Shown piece after piece: positions 28,059 to 42,398 of a DNA stretch of 64,000 nt. This DNA comes from PVC group bacterium (lineage in GTDB: Bacteria > Auribacterota > Erginobacteria > Erginobacterales > Erginobacteraceae). The stretch's first letter is position 1. The number at the start of each line of letters is the position of its first letter. A model generated the notes under the pieces. It saw only the letters and a list, made by a program, of their open reading frames with translations, was not told the DNA's origin and ran no database searches. A program made the position numbers and the translations under genes. Where the stretch lies: NCBI GenBank assembly GCA_040773245.1, contig JAXGWO010000012.1, positions 5,292-69,291 on the forward strand, written 5' to 3'.

Positions 28059-29549
28059 CTAACGGCCGAAGTGCCGGGTCATCCCGGCCAGCCGGTCGGC
28101 CAGTTCTCCGGTCAGCACCCCCGGAAGGCAGCGCCACTCCCACTGCCCGGCCGACTGTCCGGGGGCGTTCATCCTCGCCTCGCCCCCCAGCCCCAGGATG
28201 TCCTGGAGGGGGATGATGGTGAGGTCGGCGGCCGAGGCCAGCGCCCGCTTGATGAACTGCCAGTTGATCTCTTCCTGTCCGTCCTGGAAATAGTCGTGGA
28301 CGGATTTCTTCTCCTCCGGGTCGAGAGAAGAGAACCAGCCGACGGTGGTGTCGGTGTCGTGGGTCCCGGTGTAGGCCACCGAGTTGTAGGGGTAGAACTC
28401 GGGCCGGTGGGGGGAACCTTTCTTCCCCCGGAAGGCGAATTGGAGGACCCGGGTGGAGGAGAACTCCAGCAGCTCGAGGATCGCCTTGGCCTCCTCGAAG
28501 TGGACCGGCTCCAGGGCCTCGGCGATGATCGGCAGCGTCCCCAGCTTCTTCTCCAGCAGGCCGAAGAGCGAAGCCCCGGGGCCGTAAAACCACTGCCCCT
28601 CGGCCGAGCTGGCGGCATCGGTGGGGATGTGCCAGGCGACCACGAACCCGGAGAAGTGATCGACCCGGATCACGTCCACCATCTCGAGCACGGTCTTAAA
28701 CCGTCTCGTCCACCAGCCGAACCCGTCCTCCGACATCGCCACCCAGTCGTAGATGGGGTTGCCCCAGATCTGGCTGACCCCGGAGTGTCCGGTCATCGGG
28801 ACCCCGCCCAGGGCCCGCCGCTTGCCCTTCTCGTCGAGGAGAAAGAGTCGGCGGTTGGCCCAGACATCGGCGCTGTCGTAGCTGACCGGGAAGGGGATGT
28901 CCCCGATGATCTTCACCCCCCGCTCGTTGCAGTATCCGCGCAGCTTCTTCCACTGGCGGAAGAAGAGGAACTCGGCGAACTTGGTCTCCTCGATCCGGTC
29001 CGCCAGTTTCTTCGCCCATTTTTTTACCGCCGGCTCCCGGCGGAAGGCGATCTCCTTCGGCCACTCGTACCAGGGGGCGCCCCGGAAGTGGTCCTTGACC
29101 GCCTTGTAGAGGGCGTAATTCTCCAACCACGGGTTGTGCTCGACCTGAAAATCGGCGAAATTCTTCCTCCGGCGCTCCGAGGCTTCCTCCCGGAAGCGGC
29201 GCCAGGCCTTCTCCACCGCCTCCCGCTTCAGCCGGATCGCCTCGGGATAGGCCGCCCGGTCGGGGGGAAAACCCTCCCCGGGGGGGACTTCCTCCGGGGA
29301 GAGGAACCCCTCTTCGGCCAGCCGCTCGAGGCTGATCAGGGAGGGGGCGCCGGCGAAGGCCGAGGGGCTGGAGTAGGGGGAGTTGCCGTAGCCGATCGGG
29401 GTGATCGGCAGGACCTCCCAGAACCGTTGGCCGGCGTCCACCAGCCAGTCGACGAACTCGAACGCCTCCCGCCCCAGGGACCCGATCCCGTGGGGTCCGG
29501 GCAGGGAAGTGATGTGGAGGAGGACCCCCGATCCGCGTCTGAATTTCAT
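28059..29549 (-). CDS. malQ: 4-alpha-glucanotransferase (amylomaltase, GH77)
   Basis: [48 protein letters not shown]. Confidence 0.9.
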
Positions 29550-29666
29550 ATCATCCTATTCCTGGCCGCCGGATAAAGGCCGGCCCGATTTCGGCTTGCC
29601 ACCCGAAGATACTACTCGAAACGGACGAAAATCAATATGCTTTTGCTCGGGTCAAGCACTTACATT

Positions 29667-29702
29667 AAAAAATCTTCCCCTCGGGAGAGGGGAAGATTTT
29701 TT
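29667..29702. terminator. Intrinsic terminator downstream of tRNA-Phe
   Basis: AAAAAATCTTCCCCTC-GGGA-GAGGGGAAGATTTTTT perfect hairpin with A/T tails. Confidence 0.85.
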
Positions 29703-29704
29703 AA

Positions 29705-29777
<73 letters not shown>

Positions 29778-29835
29778 TTGATCCGATTTCCCTGCGCAAA
29801 TCGAAGATGGTCGTCCGGGAAGTTACGGTCGCACT

Positions 29836-29863
29836 ACTATACTGATTCCGATCTCCGTGGCAA
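29836..29863 (-). promoter_or_regulatory. Probable sigma70 promoter of tRNA-Phe
   Basis: TTGCCA-16 nt-TATAGT on the minus strand. Confidence 0.55.
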
Positions 29864-29873
29864 GCGAATTGTG

Positions 29874-30108
29874 CGCCGGGACGGCGAAACCCTGAGGGAC
29901 TTCCTCGAGGTCACCGGCTTTAAGAAGCTCAACGACGTCACCCCCCGCGGGGTCGAGAAGTTCAAGCACGACCGGCTGAAGAAGGCCAGCAAGCGGACCG
30001 TCAACCTCGAGGTCACGATGGCCAAGGCGATGTTCAACAAGCTGGTCGAGCTGGGGGTCATCCCCGAGAACCCGATCAAGGCCGTCAAGAAGATCCGGGA
30101 CCCGGAGT
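29874..30108 (+). pseudogene. Tyrosine integrase fragment (core-binding/SAM-like domain)
   Basis: LNDVTPRGVEKFKHDRLKKASKRTVNLEVTMAKAMFNKLVELGVIPENP resembles phage-integrase N-terminal domains; no proper start and no catalytic domain. Confidence 0.7.
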
Positions 30109-30263
30109 CAATATGCCACGGAGGAACGATGTTTTTTGGAATTATTTCCCCGTTCCGATCACGTCCGCCCCCCCCGGCGGCGATGTGTAAATAACTCAGG
30201 GTTGGCTCCTCCCCCGCGCTTTTCCTACTATTCTCCGCCTGCTTGGTGTTATTCTGTTTCCGT

Positions 30264-31487
30264 ATGAAGAATATCCTGATCTTTAACTGCGGGAGTTCAT
30301 CTTTGACCTGCAAGGCGTTCTCCACGGACGGATCGGGGAGGATCGAACCGATTTTAGCCGCAAAAGCCCACCGGGTCGGAGTGCAGGGCAGCGATCCTTC
30401 TTTCATCGAGTATCGGTTCTCGGGCAAGCTGACAGTGGATCGCCAGCCGGTCAATACTCACTCCGAAGCCGCCGGCCGTGTCGCGGGTTTTATCCGGGAA
30501 AATAACATCACAATCGATTGTCTGGGACATCGGTTCGCCCACGGAGGAAGCTTATTCCGGAATTCGGTCTGGCTTGATCCTGAAGTCAGGGAGGGACTCC
30601 GCCGCTGTCTCCACCTGGCGCCGATTCACAACCCGTTTTCCCTGAGCGTGATCACCACCAGCGACCATTCTTTCCCCGGGTTGCCCCAGTATGTTTCCTT
30701 CGATACGGCTTTCCACGCCGATCTGCCCGGGCCCGCCTACACCTATGCCCTGCCCCGAGCGCTGCTCGCTCAATTCGGATTTCGCAAATATGGTTTCCAC
30801 GGACTCTCGTATCAGCACGTGGTCGAAGAGACGTTTCGTTTGAGAGCAACCGGAGACAAAGAGACGAAAATCATCGCCTGCCACCTCGGTACCGGCGGCG
30901 CCAGCGTGGCGGCCATCCGGGACGGCTGTTCCGTCGACACCTCGATGGGCTACTCTCCCCTGCCGGGGTTGATTATGAGCACCCGCTGCGGGGATATCGA
31001 TCCGATGCTAACGGTTTATTTAATGACCGTATATGGTTACGGACTGGATCAGCTGGAGCAAATAATGAACAAACGGAGCGGGTTGCTGGGGGTGAGCAAC
31101 TTCTCCAGCGATATCCGGGACCTGATCAGCCGGTTCGGCGGATCGGAAGGGCCGGCGGCCCGGCTCGCCTTCGAGATGTACATCGATCGTCTGAAAAAAT
31201 ACATCGGGAGCTACGCGGTGGTGCTGGGAGGAACGGATGTCCTGGTGTTTACGGATGATATCGGGGTGCGCAACCCCCTGGTGCGGGAGAAAGTATGCGC
31301 GGGGATGGAATGGCTGGGGATAAAACTCGACCCGGAACGAAACCGGGCGGCTGACCCCGCGGCGGCATTTCACTGCGGCGCCGAAGATTCCCGGGTGGAT
31401 ATTCTCGTCATCCCTCCGGAAGAGGAATTGATCATCTGCCGGGAAGGACTGAAATTAATGGGAGGCGGCAATGATCGCGTTGTTTGA
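30264..31487 (+). CDS. ackA: Acetate kinase family protein, Entamoeba-like (candidate PPi-dependent)
   Basis: NCGSSS, GHRFAHGG, LAPIHNP, FDTAFH, YGFHG, HLGTGG, DTSMG, TRCGDIDP, EEE; start ATG 30264. Confidence 0.9.
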   Translation: MKNILIFNCGSSSLTCKAFSTDGSGRIEPILAAKAHRVGVQGSDPSFIEYRFSGKLTVDRQPVNTHSEAAGRVAGFIRENNITIDCLGHRFAHGGSLFRNSVWLDPEVREGLRRCLHLAPIHNPFSLSVITTSDHSFPGLPQYVSFDTAFHADLPGPAYTYALPRALLAQFGFRKYGFHGLSYQHVVEETFRLRATGDKETKIIACHLGTGGASVAAIRDGCSVDTSMGYSPLPGLIMSTRCGDIDPMLTVYLMTVYGYGLDQLEQIMNKRSGLLGVSNFSSDIRDLISRFGGSEGPAARLAFEMYIDRLKKYIGSYAVVLGGTDVLVFTDDIGVRNPLVREKVCAGMEWLGIKLDPERNRAADPAAAFHCGAEDSRVDILVIPPEEELIICREGLKLMGGGNDRVV

Positions 31488-32532
31488 TCCCGCTCCTCCC
31501 GCTCTGAGATGGTGCCGGATAACGGGGGGAGAGCGCATTGAGGGATCCTGTCCTTTCGGATCGAACTGGTCTCGAGAAATGGATCAACAGTTTCCCGATC
31601 TGAACCGGGCGGAGGTGATCGGCTACAAGCTCTACCACGGGGGCGGGGAGTTCAGGGATACGGTTTCCCGGATTGACCGCCGCACTCCCTCTCGATTGTC
31701 CCGTTGCCTCGGCTGGTTGCCGGAATATAATGACATTACCGCAAAAGTCGTCCGTTATGGGATGGGATGGTCCCCGGCGCCGCAGGTATTGTTTTGCGAC
31801 ACCGCCTTTTTCGCCGAACTTCCGGAACACGTCAGCGCCTATGCCTTGCCTCTGGAGTTGCGGAAAAACGGGATCCGCAAATACGGGGGGCACGGCGTGG
31901 GACATTCCTGGTCCTGGCGGGAAACGCAGCGTTTCTTCCCGGGGGAAGCGGAGCGGGTGATCAGCGTCTATCTGGGAAATAATACCAGCGCGGCGGCTAT
32001 CCTGAACGGCCGGGCGGTGGAGACCAGCATCGGTTTCACCCCGGCGGAAGGAATGCCGACGGCCACCGGCTGCGGCAGCATTGATCCGACCATTATCTTT
32101 CAACTCCGGTCGGCGGGATTCTCCTTCGAAGAAATCAACCGGCTGCTCACCCGGGAAAGCGGCTTTACCGGGCTGCGGGGAAGTCATTGCTCGCTCTCCG
32201 ATCTGCTGGCGGGCCTGTCCGATCCGGAACTCGCGCCGATTTATGCCCTATACCGCTATCGGCTGATGAAGTATATCGGAGCGTTCATTTCACCCCTGGG
32301 CGGCGTTGACGCGATTGTTTTTTTCAGCGAGATGATGGAGACTGCTCGTGATCTGGTCATTGATATCTGCCGGGACCTGGTTTTTCTCGGCGTCTCGCCC
32401 GCCGCCGCGCCCGGGACAAAAAACGGAGAGATGCTTTTTACCGGGGAGGATTCCCGGGTCCGGGTATTGGGTCTGTCCTACAACGGATGGTCGGTAATGG
32501 CCCGGGAGGCGGCCCGGATCGGCCGGGGATGA
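31471..32532 (+). CDS. Degenerate acetate-kinase paralog (probable pseudokinase)
   Basis: Keeps HGG, DTAF, YALP, KYGGHG, TSIGFTP, GSIDP, ESG, LGGVDAIVF; lacks NxGSSS, both catalytic Arg residues and the C-terminal Glu. Confidence 0.8.
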   Translation: MIALFDPAPPALRWCRITGGERIEGSCPFGSNWSREMDQQFPDLNRAEVIGYKLYHGGGEFRDTVSRIDRRTPSRLSRCLGWLPEYNDITAKVVRYGMGWSPAPQVLFCDTAFFAELPEHVSAYALPLELRKNGIRKYGGHGVGHSWSWRETQRFFPGEAERVISVYLGNNTSAAAILNGRAVETSIGFTPAEGMPTATGCGSIDPTIIFQLRSAGFSFEEINRLLTRESGFTGLRGSHCSLSDLLAGLSDPELAPIYALYRYRLMKYIGAFISPLGGVDAIVFFSEMMETARDLVIDICRDLVFLGVSPAAAPGTKNGEMLFTGEDSRVRVLGLSYNGWSVMAREAARIGRG

Positions 32533-32572
32533 TTTCGCGGGAGTGATAAATATTTCAGCCAAGGAGGAAATA

Positions 32573-33367
32573 ATGACCGAGGAAAAAAGTTTTTTGATGG
32601 ATGTCGGGTTGAGTTCCCTGCCGTTCCCGATTCGGGTTCCTTCCCGAAACAATCCCGATGGACAATACACCATCGCCGAGATCTCGATTCAGGCCCGGAT
32701 TATGCAGGAATTCGAGGCCCGGTGGATCGATAAATTCATTCAGATCATCCACCGTCACCGGGATCGAATCGGCGCCGATACGATTCGAACCAACATCGTG
32801 GATTATCTGGCCGAATTGAAGGCGTCTATGGTCCGGACCGAATTTCAGTATCCCTTCTTCGTGGAAAAGTTGACCCCGATCTCCCGGGAGAAATGCCTGG
32901 TTAAATACCAGTGCTCTTATTCCGCCAAGACCACCGCTTCGGACCACAAGGCGATGATCGCCTTTCGGATAGACATCCCGATCATTACCACCTATCCCGG
33001 CTCGGTTATTCAGGAACTGGGAGGCTTATTCGGTCAGCTCAGCGTGGTCAGCCTGGAGATTCATTCCCGGGAAGATATGTTTCCCGAAGATCTGGTTGAA
33101 ATGGTTGACCGCCACGCCCTGGCTCCGGTTTATTCCTTTCTGACTCCGGATGATCAGGCCGGTGTCATCAAGACAATTCATTCCAGCTCAAAATCCTCGG
33201 TCACCGTCACCGACGGAATAAAAGACGAACTCGCCAGCAACCCGAGTATCGACTGGTACGCCGTGCGGTGCGTTAATCACGGGATGCTCCATCCATATAC
33301 CACGGTCATCGGGACCGAAAAAAGTATGTGGGTTCCCTTTAGCGGCTATGAAGCCGGAGAGATTTAA
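32573..33367 (+). CDS. GTP cyclohydrolase FolE2/MptA-like T-fold protein lacking catalytic residues
   Basis: DVGLSSLPFPI, YPFFVEKLTP, VKYQC, EDLVE, PVYSFL...D, WYAV.C.N...LH align with FolE2; AAGGAGG RBS. Confidence 0.75.
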   Translation: MTEEKSFLMDVGLSSLPFPIRVPSRNNPDGQYTIAEISIQARIMQEFEARWIDKFIQIIHRHRDRIGADTIRTNIVDYLAELKASMVRTEFQYPFFVEKLTPISREKCLVKYQCSYSAKTTASDHKAMIAFRIDIPIITTYPGSVIQELGGLFGQLSVVSLEIHSREDMFPEDLVEMVDRHALAPVYSFLTPDDQAGVIKTIHSSSKSSVTVTDGIKDELASNPSIDWYAVRCVNHGMLHPYTTVIGTEKSMWVPFSGYEAGEI

Positions 33368-33634
33368 TTGATAAGAAATTGCTTTCCGCTGGTTTCCTCG
33401 GTTTCCCCGGTCAAGAGGTGGAACGAGGTTGCGGCTGTGATTATCGCGGTAAGCCGCCCCAAGAATCCGTAACGGAAACCTGCAGGGAAGAGGACGGAGC
33501 TCCGCCCCGGGCTTTCTTCCCTGGCGTATCTTTTCCTTGCCGGAAGATTTTTGCCGGTTTGTCACAAATCGGTGCTTCCGGTCGGGGAGAACTCCCATCT
33601 GAAAATTGCCGATTCGAGGTCCGAGGGGAGGGGA

Positions 33635-34447
33635 ATGATGAAAATATCGGGAGGAAACATCTGGACGGCCGTGGAGAAAATCCGCCGCTCCGCGCCGCTG
33701 GTCCACAACATCACCAACTACGTGGTGATGAACACCACGGCCAACGCCCTGCTCGCCCTGGGCGCCTCCCCGGTGATGGCCCACGCCGAAGAAGAGGTGC
33801 GCGATATGGTCGGACTGGCCGGGGCCCTGGTCGTCAACCTGGGGACGATCAGCGCTCCCTGGGTCCGTTCGGCGGAGCTGGCGATGGAAGAAGCGGCCGC
33901 GCGCCGGGTCCCCGTGGTCTTCGACCCGGTCGGCGCCGGCGCCACCCCTTACCGGACCGACACCTTCCGCCGGCTGGTCTCCGCCCGCCCGCCGGCCGTC
34001 ATCCGGGGCAACCCCTCGGAGATTATGGCGCTGGCCGGCGGTCCGGCCGGGACCAAGGGGGTGGACAGCACCGAGCGGGCCCCGAGCGCCCTGTCCGCGG
34101 CCGCCGGCCTGGCCCGGGAACTGGGCGTCGCGGTCTGCGTCAGCGGCGAGATTGATTACATCGTCGGGGGCGGGAGAACCCTGCGGATCGGAAACGGCCA
34201 TCCCCTGATGACCCGGGTGACCGGCCTGGGCTGCACGGCCTCGGCTCTCTGCGGGGCTTTCGCCGCGGTGGAACCCGATCCAATCTTCGCCGCCGCCGCC
34301 GCGATGGCCGTCCTCGGCATCGCCGCCGAAACGGCGGCGGAAGGGGCGGCCGGCCCCGGATCCCTCCAGTACCGCCTGCTCGACGCGCTTTACCGGCTCG
34401 ACGGGGAGACGATCCGCCGCCGGCTGAAGGCCGGGGAGGGGGAGTGA
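33635..34447 (+). CDS. thiM: Hydroxyethylthiazole kinase
   Basis: PLVHNITNYV, LALGASPVMA, NLGT, DPVGAGAT, RGNPSEI, VTGLGC. Confidence 0.95.
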   Translation: MMKISGGNIWTAVEKIRRSAPLVHNITNYVVMNTTANALLALGASPVMAHAEEEVRDMVGLAGALVVNLGTISAPWVRSAELAMEEAAARRVPVVFDPVGAGATPYRTDTFRRLVSARPPAVIRGNPSEIMALAGGPAGTKGVDSTERAPSALSAAAGLARELGVAVCVSGEIDYIVGGGRTLRIGNGHPLMTRVTGLGCTASALCGAFAAVEPDPIFAAAAAMAVLGIAAETAAEGAAGPGSLQYRLLDALYRLDGETIRRRLKAGEGE

Positions 34448-35073
34448 AAGGTTTATACCTGGTTGCCGACCCCGCCGCCTGCGCCGGGCGGCCGCTCGAT
34501 CGGGTCGTCCGGGAAGCGGCCGCGGGCGGCGCCTCCTGGGTCCAGCTGAGAGAAAAGCGGGCCTCGACGCGGGCCTTCGTCGAGGCGGCGCGCGTCCTCC
34601 AAGAGATCCTGGATCCTCTCGGGGTGCCCCTGATCATCAACGACCGGGTTGACGTGGCCCTCGCCGTCGGCGCCGCCGGCGTCCACCTGGGCCAGGCCGA
34701 TCTGCCCTCCCGGATTGCCCGGGAGCTGCTGGGCACGGAGGCCCTGGTCGGGCTCTCGGTGGAGACCTGGGAGGACGCGGAAGCGGCCCAGGAACTGGAG
34801 GTGGATTACCTGGGGGTCAGCCCGATCTTCCCCACCCCGACCAAGACCGACACCCGTGGTGCCTGGGGTCTCGAGGGTCTGGCCCGGCTGCGCGCTTTCT
34901 CCCGCCACCGGTTGGTCGCCATCGGCGGGCTCAACGCCGCCAACGCGGCGGCGGCGATCCGGGCGGGCGCCGACGCGGTCGCCGTTGTCTCCGCGGTCTG
35001 TTCGGCGCCGGACCCCGGCCGGGCCGCCCGGGAACTGAGCGGGATCATCGCGGCCGCCGGTCGGGGGAGATGA
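34444..35073 (+). CDS. thiE: Thiamine-phosphate synthase
   Basis: LYLV, VQLREK, IINDRVDVA, GVHLGQ, PTPTK, VAIGG. Confidence 0.95.
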   Translation: MKGLYLVADPAACAGRPLDRVVREAAAGGASWVQLREKRASTRAFVEAARVLQEILDPLGVPLIINDRVDVALAVGAAGVHLGQADLPSRIARELLGTEALVGLSVETWEDAEAAQELEVDYLGVSPIFPTPTKTDTRGAWGLEGLARLRAFSRHRLVAIGGLNAANAAAAIRAGADAVAVVSAVCSAPDPGRAARELSGIIAAAGRGR

Positions 35074-36194
35074 ATGCCTTTGAACTGATCGAGGAGGCGG
35101 AGCGGGGAACCGTTCTCGACCGGGGGGAGATCGCGGCCCTTCTGAGCGCCCGGGAGGCCGGGGTGCGGGAGGCACTCTTGGCCGCGGCCTACCGGGTCAA
35201 GACGGCCGAGGTCGGTCCCCGGGTCTTCCTCCGGGGGATCATCGAGTTCTCCAATGTCTGTTCCCGGGATTGTTATTATTGCGGGATCCGGCGTTCCAAC
35301 CCCGCCCCGGAGCGTTTCCGGATGGCGGCCGAGGAGATCCTGGCCGCGGCCCGCCGGGCCGACGGGAACGGCTACGGGTCGATCGTCCTCCAGTCCGGGG
35401 AAGTCCGCAGCGGGGAGTTCACGGAGTTCGTCGAGAAGCTGCTGCTCCGGATCAAGGAGGTTTCCGGCGGGCGGCTGGGAATCACCCTCTCCCTGGGGGA
35501 GCAGGACGCCGGGACCTGCCGCCGGTGGTTCGCCGCCGGGGCCCACCGCTACCTGCTCCGGATCGAGACCTCGGACCCGGAGCTCTACCGGACCCTCCAT
35601 CCGCCGGATCACCGTTTCGAGAACCGGGTCGAGTGCCTGAAGCTCCTTCGCCGGGGGGGGTGGCAGGTCGGGACCGGGGTGATGATCGGACTGCCGGGGC
35701 AGACCCCGGAGAGTTTGGCCGCCGACCTCCTCTTCTTCCGGGACCTGGATATCGATATGCTGGGGATGGGGCCCTACATCCCCCATTCCGCGACCCCGCT
35801 GGCCGCGGAGTTCGGGGAGTGGAACAGTGCGGCCCGGCGCCGCCAACTGGAACTCGGTTTGCGGATGATCGCGCTGGCCCGGCTGGTCCTGCGGGACGTG
35901 AACATCGCCGCCACCACCGCGCTCCAGACCCTCGACCCCCGGGGCCGGGAGCTGGGGCTGTCCGCCGGGGCCAATGTCATTATGCCCAACATCACCCCGA
36001 CCCGCTATCGGACCGCCTACCAGCTTTACGACGGCAAGCCCTGCCTGGACGAGACCGGCGCCGCCGGCTGGAGCGGTCTGGAAGAACGGGTGAAGAGCCT
36101 GGGGGAAACCATCGGCTTCGGCCAGTGGGGCGACTCCCCCCATTTCCGTCGCCGGACGGCGCCGCCAGCGCCCCGGGGAGGGGAGGTCAGCTGA
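35070..36194 (+). CDS. hydE: [FeFe]-hydrogenase maturase HydE-like radical SAM protein
   Basis: RGIIEFSNVCSRDCYYC, LQSGE, RYLLRIET, GVMIGLPGQ, GANVIMPN, YQLYDGK. Confidence 0.85.
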   Translation: MNAFELIEEAERGTVLDRGEIAALLSAREAGVREALLAAAYRVKTAEVGPRVFLRGIIEFSNVCSRDCYYCGIRRSNPAPERFRMAAEEILAAARRADGNGYGSIVLQSGEVRSGEFTEFVEKLLLRIKEVSGGRLGITLSLGEQDAGTCRRWFAAGAHRYLLRIETSDPELYRTLHPPDHRFENRVECLKLLRRGGWQVGTGVMIGLPGQTPESLAADLLFFRDLDIDMLGMGPYIPHSATPLAAEFGEWNSAARRRQLELGLRMIALARLVLRDVNIAATTALQTLDPRGRELGLSAGANVIMPNITPTRYRTAYQLYDGKPCLDETGAAGWSGLEERVKSLGETIGFGQWGDSPHFRRRTAPPAPRGGEVS

Positions 36195-36948
36195 TCGCGC
36201 CCTCGATGTAGCTCCGGGTCAGGTCCCGGCGGGGGGAGGAGAAGAACTCCGCCGCCGGGGCGGCCTCGATCAGCTCCCCCAGGTAGAGGAAGACCACGTA
36301 ATCGGCCAGCCGCCGGGCCTGGCGGAGGATGTGGGTGACGATCACGATCGTGTAGTCCTGCTTCAGCTCGAGGAACCTCTCCTCGATCGCCCGGCTGGAG
36401 GCGGGGTCGAGCGCCGAGGTCGGCTCGTCGCCGAGGATGATCTCCGGCTCCACCGCCAGCCCCCGGGCCAGGCAGAGCCGCTGCCGCTGGCCGACCGAGA
36501 GCCGGGAGGCCGGGGCGTGGAGCTTCCCCTTCACCTCCTCCCAGAGCTGGGCTTCCCTCAGCCGCCGCTCGACGATCTCCTTCAGGCGGCGCCGGTCCCG
36601 GACCCCGTGGATCCGGGGGCCGTAGGCGACGTTCTCGAAGATCGACATCGGCAGGACGAAGGGGGTCTGGGAGAGCAGGCCCATCTTCTTCCGGATCGCC
36701 GTCACCTCGACCCCCGGCCGGTGGATATCCTCCCCGTCCACCTCGATCTTCCCCGAGACGGCGGTTCCCTCGACCAGTTCCAGCATCCGGTTGAAGGTCT
36801 TCAGCAGTGTCGACTTCCCGCAGCCGGAGGGCCCGATGATGGCGGTGATCTTCCGGGCCGGGATGGCAAGGTTGATATCCTTCAGGGCCTGTTCCCGGCC
36901 GTAAAAGACGTTGAGGTTCTTGACCTGGATATGGGTTTCGCTCGGCAT
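36187..36948 (-). CDS. pstB: Phosphate ABC transporter ATP-binding protein
   Basis: GPSGCGKST, SIFENVAYG, LSVGQRQRL, DEPTSALDP, IVTH. Confidence 0.9.
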   Translation of the reverse strand: MPSETHIQVKNLNVFYGREQALKDINLAIPARKITAIIGPSGCGKSTLLKTFNRMLELVEGTAVSGKIEVDGEDIHRPGVEVTAIRKKMGLLSQTPFVLPMSIFENVAYGPRIHGVRDRRRLKEIVERRLREAQLWEEVKGKLHAPASRLSVGQRQRLCLARGLAVEPEIILGDEPTSALDPASSRAIEERFLELKQDYTIVIVTHILRQARRLADYVVFLYLGELIEAAPAAEFFSSPRRDLTRSYIEGAIS

Positions 36949-36958
36949 CGGTCTCACC

Positions 36959-37810
36959 TTATTTGACGATGTTTTTCGTGAACTTTCGGGTCAGCCGGCG
37001 GGAGAGGAGGCTGACCAGGAGGATGACGACGGTCAGGATCAGGGCCGAGGCGTAGGCCCGGCCCTGGACCTCGGGGAAGGGGGTGCCGAGCTGGAAGAAG
37101 ATCGCCAGGGGCAGCGTAGCCGCGGGGCGGAGCAGGGATCCCGGGATGGAGTCGGAGAAGCCGGCGGTGAAGATGACCGAGGCGGCATCCCCGATCCCCC
37201 GCCCGAAGGCGATCAGGACGGCGGTCAGCAGCCCCGGCAGGGACTGGCGGAGAACCACCCGCAGCGCCGTCTCCAGCCGGGTGGCGCCGAGGGCGAAGGA
37301 GGCGGTGAAGAGACCTTCCGGGATCATCCGGACCGCCTCGTCCATCGCCCGGCTCATCACCGGGAAGATCAGCAGCGCCACCGCGATAATCCCCCCGAGC
37401 AGGGAGGCCCGCAGGCCGAGGGCGAGCATCAGGGTGAAGCCGAAGGCCCCGTAGACGATCGAGGGCACCCCCCAGAGGACGTCGAGGGAGAACCGGACCG
37501 CCGAGGCCCGGCGGGAGCCGCGGCGGAGATAGACATTGAGACAGATCACCACCGGGAGGCTGATCAGCAGGGCGATGACCGTGGCCCCGGCGGTCAGGTA
37601 GAGGGAGCCGACGATGGCGTTGAGCACCCCGCCCTCCTTGCCCAGGTAATACCCGCCGGCCGGGGTCCGGGTCACCATCTCCAGGCTGAGGTGGGGGAAT
37701 CCCTTGACCGCCACCGTGACCAGGATCAGCAGGAGGCACCCGAGGATGACCGCGGTGGAGGAGACCATCAGGGCAAGGGCGATCCGTTCCCGGATCTTCC
37801 GCCGGTTCAT
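36959..37810 (-). CDS. pstA: Phosphate ABC transporter permease
   Basis: GGVLNAIVGS, GVPSIVYG, ASFALGAT, GRGIGD. Confidence 0.9.
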   Translation of the reverse strand: MNRRKIRERIALALMVSSTAVILGCLLLILVTVAVKGFPHLSLEMVTRTPAGGYYLGKEGGVLNAIVGSLYLTAGATVIALLISLPVVICLNVYLRRGSRRASAVRFSLDVLWGVPSIVYGAFGFTLMLALGLRASLLGGIIAVALLIFPVMSRAMDEAVRMIPEGLFTASFALGATRLETALRVVLRQSLPGLLTAVLIAFGRGIGDAASVIFTAGFSDSIPGSLLRPAATLPLAIFFQLGTPFPEVQGRAYASALILTVVILLVSLLSRRLTRKFTKNIVK

Positions 37811-37811
37811 C

Positions 37812-38711
37812 TCACTCGATCCTCCTCTCCACCCGGGCCAGGACGACCCGGGAGACGACGTTGAAGAAGACGACCACCAGCAGCAGGACCAGGGCGGAGA
37901 AGAGGAGCGCGGAGTCGTAGAGGGGGATGGAGAGCATCTCCCCGTAATTGTTGGCGATCAGGGCGGGGAGGGGGTAGGCCGGGTCGAAGAGCGAGGAGGG
38001 GACCCGGGCCACGTTCCCGGCCACCATCAGCACGGCCATTGTCTCCCCGAAGGCCCGGGAGAGGCCGAGAGCCACGGCGGCGATCACCCCGGGGAAGGCC
38101 TTGCGTCCGGTGACGCGGCGGACCGTCTCCCAGCGGGTCGCCCCCAGGGCCAGCGAGGCTTCCCGCAACCCCGCCGGGACCGTGGCGAAGACCTCCAGGC
38201 AGACGTGGATGATCACGGGGAAGATCATAATCGCCAGCACCACCCCCCCGGCCAGGACCGAGTAACCGGAGGAGGAGACGCCGAAGAAGGGGGCCAGCCA
38301 TCCCTGGATCAGGGGCACCACCACCAGCACCCCCCAGATCCCGAAGATCACCGAGGGGATGCCGGCCAGGAGGTCGATCAGGGGTTTGACTCCCTCCCGC
38401 AGCCGCGGGGGGCTGTACTCGGCCAGCCAGACGGCGGCCAGGACGCAGAGGGGGACGGCGATCGCCACCGCCGTCGCGGTCACCCAGAGGGTGCCGGCGA
38501 TGAAGGGGAAGAAGCCGAACTCGCCCCTGAGGGGACGCCAGGAGGAAGAGAGGAGGAGAGCGGAGAGGGATCGGCCGGACAGGACCGGCCGGGAGCGGAG
38601 GTAGAGTCCGGCCGCGATCACCAGCACCAGCAGGGAGCCGCCGGCGGTGATCAGGGCCAGGATCCGGGCCGCCCGGCGGTCCCGGGCCGCTCTCCGGCCG
38701 GTCCGGCTCAC
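37812..38711 (-). CDS. pstC: Phosphate ABC transporter permease
   Basis: LAGIPSVIFG, EASLALGATRWET, RAFGETMAVLMV; GTG start overlapping the pstS stop. Confidence 0.9.
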   Translation of the reverse strand: MSRTGRRAARDRRAARILALITAGGSLLVLVIAAGLYLRSRPVLSGRSLSALLLSSSWRPLRGEFGFFPFIAGTLWVTATAVAIAVPLCVLAAVWLAEYSPPRLREGVKPLIDLLAGIPSVIFGIWGVLVVVPLIQGWLAPFFGVSSSGYSVLAGGVVLAIMIFPVIIHVCLEVFATVPAGLREASLALGATRWETVRRVTGRKAFPGVIAAVALGLSRAFGETMAVLMVAGNVARVPSSLFDPAYPLPALIANNYGEMLSIPLYDSALLFSALVLLLVVVFFNVVSRVVLARVERRIE

Positions 38712-39694
38712 CGGGTTCCGCCACCCTCCGGCGCGGCGGCCGGTTCCAGCCGGAGCCGAGCCTCGCCGATCTTCTCGGGGGCCAGACGGACGTAACCCGC
38801 CTCCACGACCAGGTCCTGGCCATCGGAGAGGACCCAGTGGAGGAAGGCCCGCACCGTTTCGCCCTCCGGCCGGCCCCGGGAGGTGAAGTGGAGGTCGCGG
38901 GCCGGGGGGGAGGGGTAGCGGCCGTCGGCGATGGCGGCCCCGATCCCGCCCAGGCTGCCGTAGAAATCCTCCTCCGGTTCCACCCGCCCGCTGCCGTCGA
39001 GGTCGATCGGGATCACCATCAATCCGGGGACCTGTCCTCCCGACTTCAGGTCGTAGGCGTAGTTGATGTTGTTGAAGCCGATCCCGCCGAAGTCCCGCCG
39101 GACCGCCTGGGCCAGGCCGGGGTCGCCGTAGACCCCGACCCCGTGCAGGTCCTCCTGCTCCCCGCCCAGGTACCGGGCCCAGACCTCGGCCGCGCCGCAG
39201 GCGTCGGAACGGGTGTAGACGGCCATATCCGGCACCCGGCCGGCCCGGGGAGAGGGGGGCCAGCCGGTCGTCTCGCCCCGCAGCCAGACGGCGGCGAACT
39301 CCTCCCGGGTCATCCCCCGTTCCCGGACGGCCGCGGCGGCCGGGTTCTCCCGGTTCATCACCGGGACCACGGCGTCCTTGGCCACCGCCACCCACCAGGC
39401 GCCCGCCGCGATCTCGGCCGGGTTGATCTCCCGGGAGACCATCCCCAGGTCAACCACCCCGCCCAGGGAGTCGGCCATCCCTTTCCCCGCCCCCCCGGCC
39501 GAGATGTCGATCCGGACGCCGGGGTGGATCTTCTTGAACTCCTCGGCCCAGCGGACCGCCAGGGGGTAGAGGGCCCAGGCCCCGGAGATGGTGATCGTCC
39601 CCTGTAACTCCCCGGGGGCGGACCGCCGGCGGCAGCCGGACCCGGCGGCGAGAATTATTGCGGCCGTCAAAACCAGGATCCATATTCTTTTCAT
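38708..39694 (-). CDS. pstS: Phosphate ABC transporter substrate-binding lipoprotein
   Basis: Lipobox GSGC; ISGAWALYP, GGAGKG, MVSRE, RSDACGA, YPSPPARDL. Confidence 0.85.
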   Translation of the reverse strand: MKRIWILVLTAAIILAAGSGCRRRSAPGELQGTITISGAWALYPLAVRWAEEFKKIHPGVRIDISAGGAGKGMADSLGGVVDLGMVSREINPAEIAAGAWWVAVAKDAVVPVMNRENPAAAAVRERGMTREEFAAVWLRGETTGWPPSPRAGRVPDMAVYTRSDACGAAEVWARYLGGEQEDLHGVGVYGDPGLAQAVRRDFGGIGFNNINYAYDLKSGGQVPGLMVIPIDLDGSGRVEPEEDFYGSLGGIGAAIADGRYPSPPARDLHFTSRGRPEGETVRAFLHWVLSDGQDLVVEAGYVRLAPEKIGEARLRLEPAAAPEGGGTR

Positions 39695-39723
39695 GGTCGT
39701 TCTCCGTATTGGCGTTTGCCCGG

Positions 39724-40404
39724 TCAGAATGAGAGCCGGACTGAGGTGAACAGGACATTGGTGAAATCCCAGCTGCCGGTGGAGGCCGATTTCTTCCCGA
39801 CATTCCGGTAGGCGGCGGTGACCCCGAAGGGTCCCAGCACCTGGAGATTCGCCCCAATCGTGGCCCGGTTCTCCGAGAAGGTGTCCCGCCCGTCTTCAAA
39901 ATCGAAATTGAAAAAGAACTCGTTCTCCGTATAGAAAATGAGCGGTTTCAAGCCCAACCTGGCCAGGGGGAAATCCAATCGCGGCCGGACCCGGAGCGTC
40001 CACTTGTAGCGGGTGTTGTCGTATTCGATCCGGTTGTTCTCCCGCAGGACCAGCCAGTCGGCCGCCTGGTACTGGAAATCCAGGTTCCCGACGTAGGTGT
40101 CGGTATAGACCCAGGGTGAATCCTTGTCCTTCCGGACTTCCTTGTACCAGAAGTGGCCGCCCACCGCGATCCCGGGGAGAAGAGAGTAGGTGCCGCCGGT
40201 TATTGCCGACCGGTAGTAGATATCCTTCAGATCGTTCTTCCAGCGGAAGAGCCCCTCGACGTTGAGGCGGATTTCCGGGGTCGGGCGGTAGCTGACCGGG
40301 GTGGTAAACCACCACTCCCAGTCATCCTTCGCCGCGGCCGGCCCCGATCCGGCCAGACAATACGCGGCCACCAGTGCACCGGCGAGCAAGATGGATTGTT
40401 TCAT
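39724..40404 (-). CDS. Outer-membrane beta-barrel protein (DUF2490-like)
   Basis: Signal peptide, alternating beta strands, R.EY, NEFFF, NR motifs, C-terminal Phe. Confidence 0.7.
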   Translation of the reverse strand: MKQSILLAGALVAAYCLAGSGPAAAKDDWEWWFTTPVSYRPTPEIRLNVEGLFRWKNDLKDIYYRSAITGGTYSLLPGIAVGGHFWYKEVRKDKDSPWVYTDTYVGNLDFQYQAADWLVLRENNRIEYDNTRYKWTLRVRPRLDFPLARLGLKPLIFYTENEFFFNFDFEDGRDTFSENRATIGANLQVLGPFGVTAAYRNVGKKSASTGSWDFTNVLFTSVRLSF

Positions 40405-40453
40405 CGTTCTAACCCCCTTTTCGGTTTGGCCCCGGCGGGCCCGGTTTATCTTA

Positions 40454-40478
40454 TATTATCTATAGAGATAGTAGAATA
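40454..40478. promoter_or_regulatory. Candidate Rrf2 operator upstream of the porin-pst operon
   Basis: AT-rich imperfect palindrome TATTATCTATAGAGATAGTAGAATA; related TATTATCTCTATGGG box upstream of the rrf2 gene (~40950). Confidence 0.35.
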
Positions 40479-40493
40479 TCAAGGCAAAAAAAA

Positions 40494-40904
40494 TCAGGGC
40501 CGGGGGGCGAGATCCCCCAGGCTTTTCTTCTCCAGGATCCCGGCCAGCGCCTCCCGGACCTCGGCCATCACCCCGTGGAGGCCGCAGATCTTCTCCCGGG
40601 GGCAGCGGAGATGGGCGGTCTTGGAGACGCAGCGCAGCGGAGCCAGGGGGCCGTCGATCATCCGGATCACCCGGGCCAGGGAGACGGTGCGGGGGTCCTT
40701 GAGCAGGCGGTAGCCCCCGGCCGGCCCGCGCACGCTCTCGATCAACCCGGCTTTCCGCAGTTCGAGGAGGATCGCCTCGAGAAATTTCTTCGGGATCTGC
40801 TCCTCCCGGGCGATCTCCCGGATCGGGACCGGCCCTTCGCCCCGCCGCCGGACCAGGCAGCTCAGGGCTCGCAGGGCGTACTCGCCTTTCTTGGAAATCT
40901 TCAC
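40494..40904 (-). CDS. Rrf2-family transcriptional regulator with three Cys (IscR/CymR-like)
   Basis: YALRAL, FLEAILLELRKAGLIESVRGPAGGYRL, CVS...C....C. Confidence 0.92.
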   Translation of the reverse strand: MKISKKGEYALRALSCLVRRRGEGPVPIREIAREEQIPKKFLEAILLELRKAGLIESVRGPAGGYRLLKDPRTVSLARVIRMIDGPLAPLRCVSKTAHLRCPREKICGLHGVMAEVREALAGILEKKSLGDLAPRP

Positions 40905-41042
40905 GATGGGCCACTCTATCGGACCGGGTCCGGGAGGTCAAGAAAAAAATATTATCTCTATGGGAATTATATACTATCGAGGAAATAACCGCGGCGGGAA
41001 GCGGTCAACCCGGGAATCCCATCGGCTCGCCCGGTCAGGCGA

Positions 41043-41114
41043 TGGGCGCTGCTGGATTTGAACCAGCGGCATCTACCTTGTAAGGGTAGCGCTCTCCCGC
41101 TGAGCTAAGCGCCC
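41043..41114 (-). tRNA. tRNA-Val (TAC)
   Basis: Reverse complement GGGCGCTTAGCTCAGCGGGAGAGCGCTACCCTTACAAGGTAGATGCCGCTGGTTCAAATCCAGCAGCGCCCA folds as a cloverleaf. Confidence 0.95.
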
Positions 41115-41264
41115 GGATTGTCCCCCCGTCCGGGGGGTACATTGATAGACTACCGCTCCCGGAACCGGCCGTCAACCCCGGAGCCGGAAAACTCTCTTGT
41201 GAACCGGCCCGGTTTGCGCTATCTTTAAGCAGGACAAACCTGATCCAGGCATAACTTCGAGACA

Positions 41265-42398
41265 ATGTATCCCGAACAGCCGACAGAAGCCTTTGAGGAC
41301 GAGTTCAGTTTCCTGCGGCGGAAGCTCTCCCTGCTCAAGAAAGACTCGAAGAAGCGCAAGGAACTGATCCGCCGCCTGCGGGAGAAGTACCTCCAGTGCG
41401 CGGAGATCGTCGATCACCTCAAGGACGGCATCTTCATCGAGACCGCCCGGGGGGAGATCCTCGACGTCAACGCCGCCGTCTGCCGGATGCTTGGCTACAG
41501 CCGCGAGGAACTGCTGAAGATGACGGTCGGCGACCTGGTCCCCCCCGAGATCCGGGCCGCCCTCCCGGAGACGATCCAGGACCTGACCGTCCGGCACGGG
41601 GTCTACATCGAGACGGTCAACATCCGCAAGGACGGCACCCTCCTCCCGGTGGAGGTCTCGAACAGCCTGGTGGAGATCGGGGGCAAGAAACGGGTGATCG
41701 CGGTCATCCACGACATCACCGAGCGGATCGAGAACCGGAAGAAGCTCCTCGCCTCCCACGAGGAGCTGGAGGCGAAGGTCCGGAGACGGACCGAGGAGAT
41801 CCACCGGATCAACCAGGAACTGCGGGACGAGCACCGCCTCTTCGTCGCCGGTCCGACCGTGGTCCTGAAGTGGCGGGCCGTCCCCGGCTGGCCGGTGGAG
41901 TACGTCTCCCCCAACATCGAGAGCCAGTTCGGCTACCGGCCGGAGGAGTTCGGCGGGGGGGATTTCTTCTACGAGTCGATCATCCACCCGGAGGACCGGG
42001 ACCGGGTCGGCGAGGAGATCAAGGACCACGTGGCCGCCGGCCGGAACTCCTACGAGCAGGTTTACCGGATCGCCAGCCGCTCCGGCGAGTGGCGCTGGGT
42101 GAGCGACTACACCGTGGTGGTCCGCTCCGCCGCCGGCGAGATCACCCATTACCACGGCTACGTCCTCGACATCACCGAGCGGCGAGCGGCCGAGGAGGAG
42201 CTGCGGCGCCACCGGGAACACCTGGAGGAGCTGGTCGAGAAGCGGACCGCCGAACTGACCGGGATGATCGACGCGATGGCCCGCCGGGTGGTCCGGACCG
42301 CCGACCTCGAGCTGGCCGTGGAGCGCCTGAAGAGGCAGCTCGAGGCGGCCGGCCTCGACCCCGCCGCCGGCGAAAGTCCGCGCCCGCCCTCCGGATGA
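41265..42398 (+). CDS. PAS-domain sensor protein (two PAS domains plus coiled coils, no output domain)
   Basis: VNAAVCRMLGYSREEL...RKDG...DITER; second PAS IHPEDR...WRWV...DITER. Confidence 0.88.
   Translation: MYPEQPTEAFEDEFSFLRRKLSLLKKDSKKRKELIRRLREKYLQCAEIVDHLKDGIFIETARGEILDVNAAVCRMLGYSREELLKMTVGDLVPPEIRAALPETIQDLTVRHGVYIETVNIRKDGTLLPVEVSNSLVEIGGKKRVIAVIHDITERIENRKKLLASHEELEAKVRRRTEEIHRINQELRDEHRLFVAGPTVVLKWRAVPGWPVEYVSPNIESQFGYRPEEFGGGDFFYESIIHPEDRDRVGEEIKDHVAAGRNSYEQVYRIASRSGEWRWVSDYTVVVRSAAGEITHYHGYVLDITERRAAEEELRRHREHLEELVEKRTAELTGMIDAMARRVVRTADLELAVERLKRQLEAAGLDPAAGESPRPPSG

Follow-up and report, generated by a model that had tools for sequence, protein, structure and literature searches.

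According to Dang and Ingram-Smith (2017, PMC5517563), acetate kinase dependent on inorganic pyrophosphate (PPi) is known from Entamoeba only. The Entamoeba histolytica enzyme, which depends on PPi and phosphate (Pi), is classified as EC 2.7.2.12 (cited in PMC8863071). Section 12 of PMC5517563 presents two signatures, an extra glycine in the PHOSPHATE2 loop and an Asp-Asp where ATP enzymes have Ala/Gly-Gly, as confined to the enzymes of Entamoeba and to four sequences from Anaerolineaceae. The mutagenesis of 2017 left open what decides between PPi and ATP use. Here we describe a locus of three tightly coupled open reading frames (ORFs) at positions 30264-33367 on the plus strand of a stretch of 64,000 nucleotides (hereafter the window; contig JAXGWO010000012.1, positions 5,292 to 69,291, assembly GCA_040773245.1) from a PVC group bacterium of the Erginobacteraceae (Auribacterota). 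The first gene, ACK1, encodes an acetate kinase that is intact and belongs to the Entamoeba-like clade; the second, ACK2, an acetate-kinase-fold paralog that lacks the catalytic residues; and the third, T3, a protein with the bimodular T-fold of FolE2 that lacks the FolE2 metal ligands.

Each of the three genes has a described relative with which it can be compared. ACK1 shares with the Entamoeba enzyme (4h0o) the extra PHOSPHATE2 glycine, the Asp before an altered ADENOSINE dipeptide and the Asp/Arg pair of an SSD-x-RD motif, and it has both signatures of the Anaerolineaceae sequences that PMC5517563 calls "other possible PPi-dependent ACKs". In section 12 of that paper the latter are single genes whose donor is left open, and a paired dead paralog or FolE2-like neighbour is not mentioned there; nor is any inactive paralog or T-fold companion of the Entamoeba enzyme named in that section or the associated passages. 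For ACK1 and ACK2 together, the closest parallel is found in trypanosomatids, where S-adenosylmethionine decarboxylase (AdoMetDC) with its prozyme, and deoxyhypusine synthase, combine an active enzyme with a selected inactive paralog (as described in parts of PMC5201418 and PMC3663545). These pairs are eukaryotic and experimentally proven, as those parts report, whereas an ACK1-ACK2 heterodimer is a putative one, and our locus adds a third, unrelated pseudo-enzyme. T3, finally, resembles GTP cyclohydrolase IB (FolE2; structures 3d2o, 5k95, 8g6c and 2r5r) in its bimodular T-fold and in many framework residues, and differs from it in the replacement of the Cys, His and Glu metal ligands, of a second Cys and of the proposed base Glu, in an extra C-terminal tail, and in a score below the NCBIfam FolE2 cut-off.

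As far as the consulted section of PMC5517563 goes, the ACK1 clade has been flagged as possibly PPi-dependent since 2017; the obligate pairing with a dead paralog and the FolE2-like companion are not mentioned there. A preliminary description of the locus, made from the sequence, stated that its author knew of no described pathway with this combination. The literature searches that we made returned no account of the module (the supplementary alignments of PMC5517563 were outside their reach), and the papers that the search on PPi-dependent acetate kinase returned do not treat bacterial enzymes of the ACK1 type.

Results

Conservation of the three-gene module

In the window, the frames of ACK1 and ACK2 share 17 bp, GGGAGG precedes the ATG of ACK2, and 40 bp separate the ACK2 stop from the start of T3, which is preceded by AAGGAGG. 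The preliminary description had reported the overlap, the gap and a strong ribosome-binding site, and all three are confirmed. Homologs of T3 were collected from one genome per species, which gave 80 loci, all in metagenome-assembled genomes (MAGs), with T3 proteins that are 54-84% identical. Their hosts belong to the Zixibacteria, Omnitrophota, Ignavibacteria, Myxococcales, Planctomycetes, Acidobacteria, Actinomycetes, Verrucomicrobia, Spirochaetes and other groups. An ACK1-type gene (51-82% identical) and an ACK2-type gene (36-69%) lie directly beside T3 in 34 of the 80. The reverse search was made with an alignment of ACK2, a single-sequence search having returned the closest relative only. 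It also gave 80 loci, which comprise 57 true ACK2 orthologs and 23 ordinary acetate kinases. T3 adjoins ACK2 in 55 of the 57, and in the other two the contig ends at most 66 nt past ACK2; ACK1 is present in 56.

With duplicates removed and the window counted, there are 61 distinct trio loci in many phyla, so that the conserved synteny which the preliminary description had proposed to look for is indeed found. The order is ACK1-ACK2-T3 in 57 of these loci and T3-ACK1-ACK2 in the other four. The coupling is tight: of the 58 loci in which the ACK1-ACK2 junction could be measured, 54 have a value between -23 and +2 nt, and 51 of 56 ACK2-T3 junctions fall between -14 and +16 nt. An in-frame fusion of ACK2 and T3 to a protein of 623 amino acids (aa) occurs in one locus, from Sumerlaeota, and the record of this protein has both Pfam domains. 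When contigs were scanned for the ACK1-type motif, 31 stretches were found, of which 29 lie on contigs known for the trio (one of these, L124, has ACK1 and ACK2 only, followed by the contig edge) and two in Anaerolineaceae MAGs. No other recurrent flanking gene was detected among the 44 flanking ORFs examined, and the flanks vary by locus; pta adjoins the trio in one case (L001), and a gene for ADP-forming acetyl-CoA synthetase in another (L017).

Pairwise Nei-Gojobori estimates for 12 locus pairs gave ratios of nonsynonymous to synonymous substitution (dN/dS) of 0.09-0.18 for ACK1, 0.10-0.28 for ACK2 and 0.05-0.14 for T3, which is thus the most constrained of the three. As these ratios are low, both "degenerate" genes, ACK2 and T3, are under purifying selection, and the dN/dS comparison suggested beforehand identifies them as conserved non-catalytic relatives that are not decaying. 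In a phylogenetic tree, ACK1 forms one clade and ACK2 another (local support 0.89 and 0.91), and the groupings inside the two clades are similar.

In a few places the genes are not intact. ACK1, ACK2 or T3 is split into two tblastn pieces in four loci (L046, L085, L105 and L109). A record of 483 aa (P0126), in which the front of an ACK1 (residues 1 to about 303) is followed by residues 78-260 of a T3, was judged to be a deletion or an assembly chimera and was not counted as a fusion. Both the split genes and P0126 could be due to local decay, frameshifts or assembly errors.

ACK1, an intact acetate kinase

ACK1 (30264-31487, plus strand, 407 aa) matches the Pfam profile Acetate_kinase (PF00871) with 344.9 bits (cut-off 22) over profile positions 2-391 of 392, and TIGR00016 with 341.1 bits, above the cut-off of 293.4. 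Its best match in the PDB is the E. histolytica enzyme 4h0o (2.8e-98). The ATP-dependent enzymes of Methanosarcina and Thermotoga rank behind it, at about 1e-83 (1tuu/1g99, 6e-84). All 22 ACK1 orthologs have the GSSS phosphate loop, and they do not vary at the sites aligned with the catalytic Arg, His, Asp, His, Arg and Glu; the residues in question are N8, S11-S13, R90, H122, D147, H179, R241 and E387, and they are identical in the alignment with 1tuu. Their catalytic and phosphate-binding counterparts in Methanosarcina are, as we take it, Asn7, Ser10-12, Arg91, His123, Asp148, His180, Arg241 and Glu384. The PHOSPHATE2 loop reads HLGTGG and is extended by a second glycine, and the ADENOSINE motif reads FTDDIG, with T210-G211-G212 and D331-D332-I333-G334 again invariant in 22 of 22 orthologs. 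The first gene had been assigned beforehand to the Entamoeba (PPi) type, and the best solved relative, the extension of the PHOSPHATE2 loop and the changes in the ADENOSINE motif all speak for this assignment. No Entamoeba sequence is present among the best 120 of 7027 ACK1 homologs.

ACK2, the dead paralog

ACK2 (31471-32532, plus strand, 353 aa) is recognized by PF00871 with 164.3 bits, above the cut-off, over profile positions 77-385 only, and reaches 162.4 bits against TIGR00016, below the cut-off of 293.4. Comparison of a profile of 25 orthologs with PDB sequences shows that the PHOSPHATE1 motif is gone, FDPxPP replacing GSSS. In the same orthologs, the positions equivalent to Arg91, His123, His180, Arg241 and Glu384 are lost, and that of Asp148 alone is kept. 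The AlphaFold2 (AF2) model of ACK2 has a predicted local distance difference test (pLDDT) score of 82.7 and is similar to solved acetate kinases (Foldseek TMq 0.75-0.84). As modelled, ACK2 is a protein with a complete acetate-kinase-like fold.

The stretch GFTP-EG...CGDIDPT (residues 188-230, approximately 32032-32160), in which ACK2 is most highly conserved, is the sole low-confidence part of this model, with pLDDT below 50. It is possible that this segment, which the model leaves poorly defined, orders only in the presence of a partner.

T3, the FolE2-like protein

T3 (32573-33367, plus strand, 264 aa) matches the Pfam family GCHY-1/FolE2 (PF02649) with 67.9 bits (cut-off 25), and its score of 57.5 bits against the FolE2 equivalog NF010200 is far under the cut-off of 215. 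The FolE2 sequences in the PDB (3d2o, 5k95, 8g6c, 2r5r) match with values between 1.4e-17 and 4.6e-11. The AF2 model (pLDDT 83.5) has only FolE2 proteins as its nearest structures (Foldseek TMq 0.72-0.78, E about 1e-16), and a search of the ESM Atlas with T3 returned "FolE2 family" clusters only.

The active site residues were located by combining residue alignments with the ligand lists given in PMC11573665 and PMC11672702. According to these lists, the metal ligands are Cys147, His159 and Glu201 in the Neisseria gonorrhoeae enzyme (Cys154, His166 and Glu208 in that of Burkholderia pseudomallei), and T3 has Tyr141, Phe153 and Gln195 at these positions. The second conserved cysteine (Cys149 or Cys156, respectively) corresponds to Gly143 and the proposed base (Glu243 or Glu250) to Gly237; the last catalytic histidine alone is kept, as H240. 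Judged by this alignment, with its metal ligands replaced, T3 cannot be a GTP cyclohydrolase of known mechanism. Together with the losses in ACK2, this upholds the earlier claim, now by alignment to solved structures, that two of the three genes lack catalytic residues in intact frames.

Residues of the FolE2 framework are kept in T3, for example Q31, T33, K99, P136, Q155, S157, E172 and D194. An alignment of 45 T3 sequences has 35 invariant columns, among them H60, C108, C114 and H203, which FolE2 does not have at these positions; H62 is invariant too, and T3 proteins carry an extra conserved C-terminal tail that is modelled with low confidence. The T3 family comprises at least 820 protein clusters, and the names given among the 120 listed are all forms of GTP cyclohydrolase. 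Public pipelines apply generic names to the two degenerate proteins, "acetate/propionate family kinase" to ACK2 and "GTP cyclohydrolase FolE2" to T3; because the metal ligands are missing, the latter name is wrong for the function.

Genomic setting

The trio sits in a low-GC islet of about 3.7 kb (29800-33500) between a tRNA-Phe gene and a thiM-thiE operon. In 1-kb segments of the region 29500-33499 the GC content is 0.53-0.59, compared with 0.65-0.73 on both sides, so the three co-oriented genes do share an atypical composition, as had been claimed. The left flank consists of MalQ, tRNA-Phe and an integrase remnant. The tRNA-Phe (GAA) gene, at 29705-29777 on the minus strand, forms the left border of the islet (ARAGORN; Rfam tRNA, 74.8 bits). 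The phage-type integrase remnant, at 29886-30098 on the plus strand, retains the N-terminal domain only, the catalytic domain being gone; the match to Pfam Int_N (34.1 bits) covers residues 84-154 of the ORF 29637-30194, which also matches the integrase PHROG_1 with 34.9 bits. ThiM, ThiE and a radical S-adenosylmethionine (SAM) gene make up the right flank. Neither pta nor phosphoketolase adjoins the trio of the window, in line with the preliminary description.

T3 occurs in three of 40 related genomes of the lineage, two of them with the full trio and the third with a T3 fragment only, and in none of four other genomes of the same genus. This patchy distribution, the tRNA gene, the integrase remnant and the low GC content point to horizontal acquisition of the trio. 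A direct repeat of the tRNA end was not found within 29600-33700, and the same-genus genomes offered no usable empty site, their DNA being about 70% alike and the one compared region non-syntenic. The tRNA gene was the sole element in an Rfam scan of 29000-34500, and scans of the locus for promoters and terminators gave signals not above those in shuffled sequence.

Elsewhere in the host genome, which is 96.5% complete, canonical AckA, Pta and FolE are encoded. The host has a membrane-bound, proton-pumping pyrophosphatase (H+-PPase, 861 bits), and a soluble pyrophosphatase was not found in the 96.5% that is available, a combination that fits a PPi economy.

Some features lie further out. ThiM, ThiE and the radical SAM gene follow directly after the islet (33551-36194, plus strand), and a thiamine pyrophosphate riboswitch was not detected at the Rfam gathering score within 29000-34500. 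An ATP-binding cassette (ABC) operon for phosphate uptake (36187-39694, minus strand), with a PstB-like ABC_tran protein, two BPD_transp_1 permeases and a PBP_like_2 binding protein, lies about 3 kb past the trio in high-GC host DNA and is probably unrelated to the islet. In this region, at 37000-38999, the AT skew reaches 0.28-0.33, an unusually high value. GC content is lowered again (0.60-0.64) at 39500-41500, beside a tRNA-Val gene (41043-41114, minus strand), in a stretch that contains a DUF2490 gene and ORFs without Pfam match and may be another small islet.

Discussion

Together, our data describe the trio as one horizontally mobile operon for a modified acetate kinase system. For its mode of action we put forward a model, tentatively and at somewhat less than an even chance, in which ACK1 is a non-ATP, probably Pi/PPi-linked kinase, ACK2 is a dead-paralog protomer, and T3 is an accessory or ligand-sensing subunit that joins through ACK2. 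As read from its sequence, ACK1 would be the catalytic subunit and would most likely catalyze the reversible reaction of acetyl phosphate and Pi to acetate and PPi, or use another non-ATP donor. A Pi/PPi-type activity is suggested because the catalytic residues are all kept while the nucleotide pocket has Entamoeba-like changes. By analogy with the trypanosomatid prozymes, ACK2 would most likely stand in for one protomer to form an ACK1-ACK2 heterodimer, a role that suggests itself because acetate kinases are dimers. T3 would then be a non-cyclohydrolase partner of acetate kinases, and the module as a whole would exchange acetyl phosphate and PPi in a host that has a proton-pumping pyrophosphatase. 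The preliminary description had proposed a heteromeric complex in which an inactive ACK subunit and a GTP/pterin-binding T-fold protein regulate or scaffold a PPi-linked enzyme, and our results support this in part; on its alternative, formyl-phosphate handling, they do not bear. Complex prediction for ACK1 (residues 3-398), ACK2 (1-346) and T3 (5-262), with T3 as the partner, gave 0.01 against a mark of 0.32; run without controls, it is evidence neither way.

Several observations weigh against this model, or at least against a strict three-part unit. In 46 of the 80 T3 loci there is neither ACK1 nor ACK2, and none of five T3-only genomes that were examined has an unambiguous ACK2; T3 therefore has a role independent of the pair. 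In the tree, T3 sequences from trio loci are mixed with those from solo loci, and no position that separates the two sharply was found. Conversely, T3 is absent from the whole 3.9-Mb MAG of a Levilinea species (Anaerolineaceae) that, unlike the trio genomes, has the pair only. Here the gene after ACK1 is a true ACK2, with 270.6 bits against the ACK2 profile (L199, 5060-7340), so that ACK1 and ACK2 do not strictly depend on T3; the pair is basal in both the ACK1 and the ACK2 clade. The ACK2 profile scores higher against canonical acetate kinases (238 bits) than against 4h0o (171 bits), which means that ACK2 is no recent copy of ACK1. The single ACK2-T3 fusion could reflect a lost stop codon in one lineage. 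As to PPi use, the Gln323-Met324 dipeptide of the Entamoeba ADENOSINE motif is absent from ACK1, which has Asp332-Ile333 instead and shares the preceding Asp331, and the authors of 2017, in their section on the bacterial look-alikes, leave open whether these use PPi, ATP or neither (PMC5517563). We conclude that ACK1 and ACK2 are the tightest unit and that T3 is their usual, not universal, companion.

In four of the solo T3 loci (L035, L045, L064 and L069) the gene immediately upstream is a canonical-type ack, and four loci from Geobacteraceae have ack and pta at a distance of 3.5-4.7 kb upstream; the neighbours of the other 38 vary, and in Zixibacteria they include paired GNAT genes. Independently of the pair, T3 thus repeatedly touches acetate kinase and acetyl-group genes. 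The Levilinea pair lies amid genes of glycan synthesis: GT2, WbqC, methyltransferases and DegT flank it to one side, a methyltransferase together with a P-loop kinase to the other. This setting hints at a different use of the ACK pair in Anaerolineaceae.

Two further patterns were seen around solo T3 genes. In six Geobacteraceae loci (L048, L051, L058, L062, L063 and L067), T3 lies between an aldehyde-dehydrogenase-like gene and a membrane hydrogenase module of the Ech/Hyf type with Proton_antipo_M and NADHdh, and pta and ack are found upstream where the flank is long enough. One or two paralogous GNAT-type acetyltransferase genes precede T3 in four loci (L002, L029, L033 and L078) from Zixibacteria and a Terriglobales MAG.

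The link between T3 and the kinases could be metabolic and not physical. T3 would then be a neofunctionalised enzyme with a new active site, either metal-independent or differently liganded, that makes or consumes an acyl phosphate or acetyl donor, and ACK1/ACK2 would be one of several kinases that feed it. This is an appreciable, though clearly minor, possibility. It would account well for the strongest constraint within the trio (dN/dS 0.05-0.14), for 54-84% identity across phyla, for the 35 invariant columns with the non-FolE2 residues H60, C108, C114 and H203, and for the many solo loci, some of them beside canonical ack, pta or paired GNAT genes. However, we know of no T-fold enzyme that acts on acyl phosphates, the neighbours of solo T3 are heterogeneous and reveal no recurrent pathway, and the tight coupling and the ACK2-T3 fusion suit a complex at least equally well. 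A different idea concerns the kinase pair itself, which might phosphorylate another small acid, or use polyphosphate or a non-adenine nucleotide as donor, for instance in the modification of glycans or cofactors. The section of PMC5517563 on the Asp-Asp type enzymes leaves their donor open, which would allow for this. So would the company of the Levilinea pair, with its DegT aminotransferase, WbqC, GT2 glycosyltransferase, methyltransferases and P-loop kinase. Yet where the Methanosarcina enzyme has its acetate pocket, which we take to consist of Val93, Leu122, Phe179 and Pro232, ACK1 carries Ala or Val, Ile, Phe and Pro, respectively, and pta, ack or a gene for acetyl-CoA synthetase is a neighbour of several loci with the trio or T3, so that we regard another substrate or donor as doubtful.

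That the integrase next to the trio is a remnant, and that genes are split in four loci, could be taken to mean that ACK2 and T3 are decaying leftovers, or miscalled ORFs, on a dying island beside a functional kinase. This is extremely improbable in view of dN/dS values well under 1 in all pairs tested, intact frames in most of the 61 loci from many phyla, family-specific invariant residues in both proteins, and confident models of both folds. The patchy occurrence (three of 40 related genomes), the adjoining tRNA gene, the integrase remnant and the atypical GC content would suit mobile-element cargo for conflict, such as anti-phage defence. PADLOC and PHROG match none of the three proteins, however, and in other genomes the trio lies among ordinary housekeeping genes, with no mobile or defence genes that recur, making such a role very improbable. 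Gene decay and defence can thus be regarded as nearly excluded.

A more far-reaching version of the model that we tentatively favour would make T3 a new T-fold partner of acetate kinases, either a ligand sensor or an acyl-phosphate enzyme, which forms with ACK1 and ACK2 an energy module that generates or consumes PPi, is widespread in anaerobes and constitutes the bacterial background out of which the Entamoeba enzyme arose. We consider this extended version unlikely.

The module is of interest at several levels. The misnaming of T3 can mislead reconstructions of the folate and queuosine pathways in MAGs. Two different pseudo-enzymes under strong selection in one operon are a useful prokaryotic case for the study of pseudo-enzyme function. 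A bacterial clade with the Entamoeba signatures would give the PPi enzyme of Entamoeba a bacterial context, and would provide genes for tests of PPi versus ATP use. The source of PPi in anaerobes with PPi-dependent glycolysis is an open problem (PMC8863071), and a PPi-forming acetate kinase module, if true, would be a candidate answer to the question of PPi supply in these organisms.

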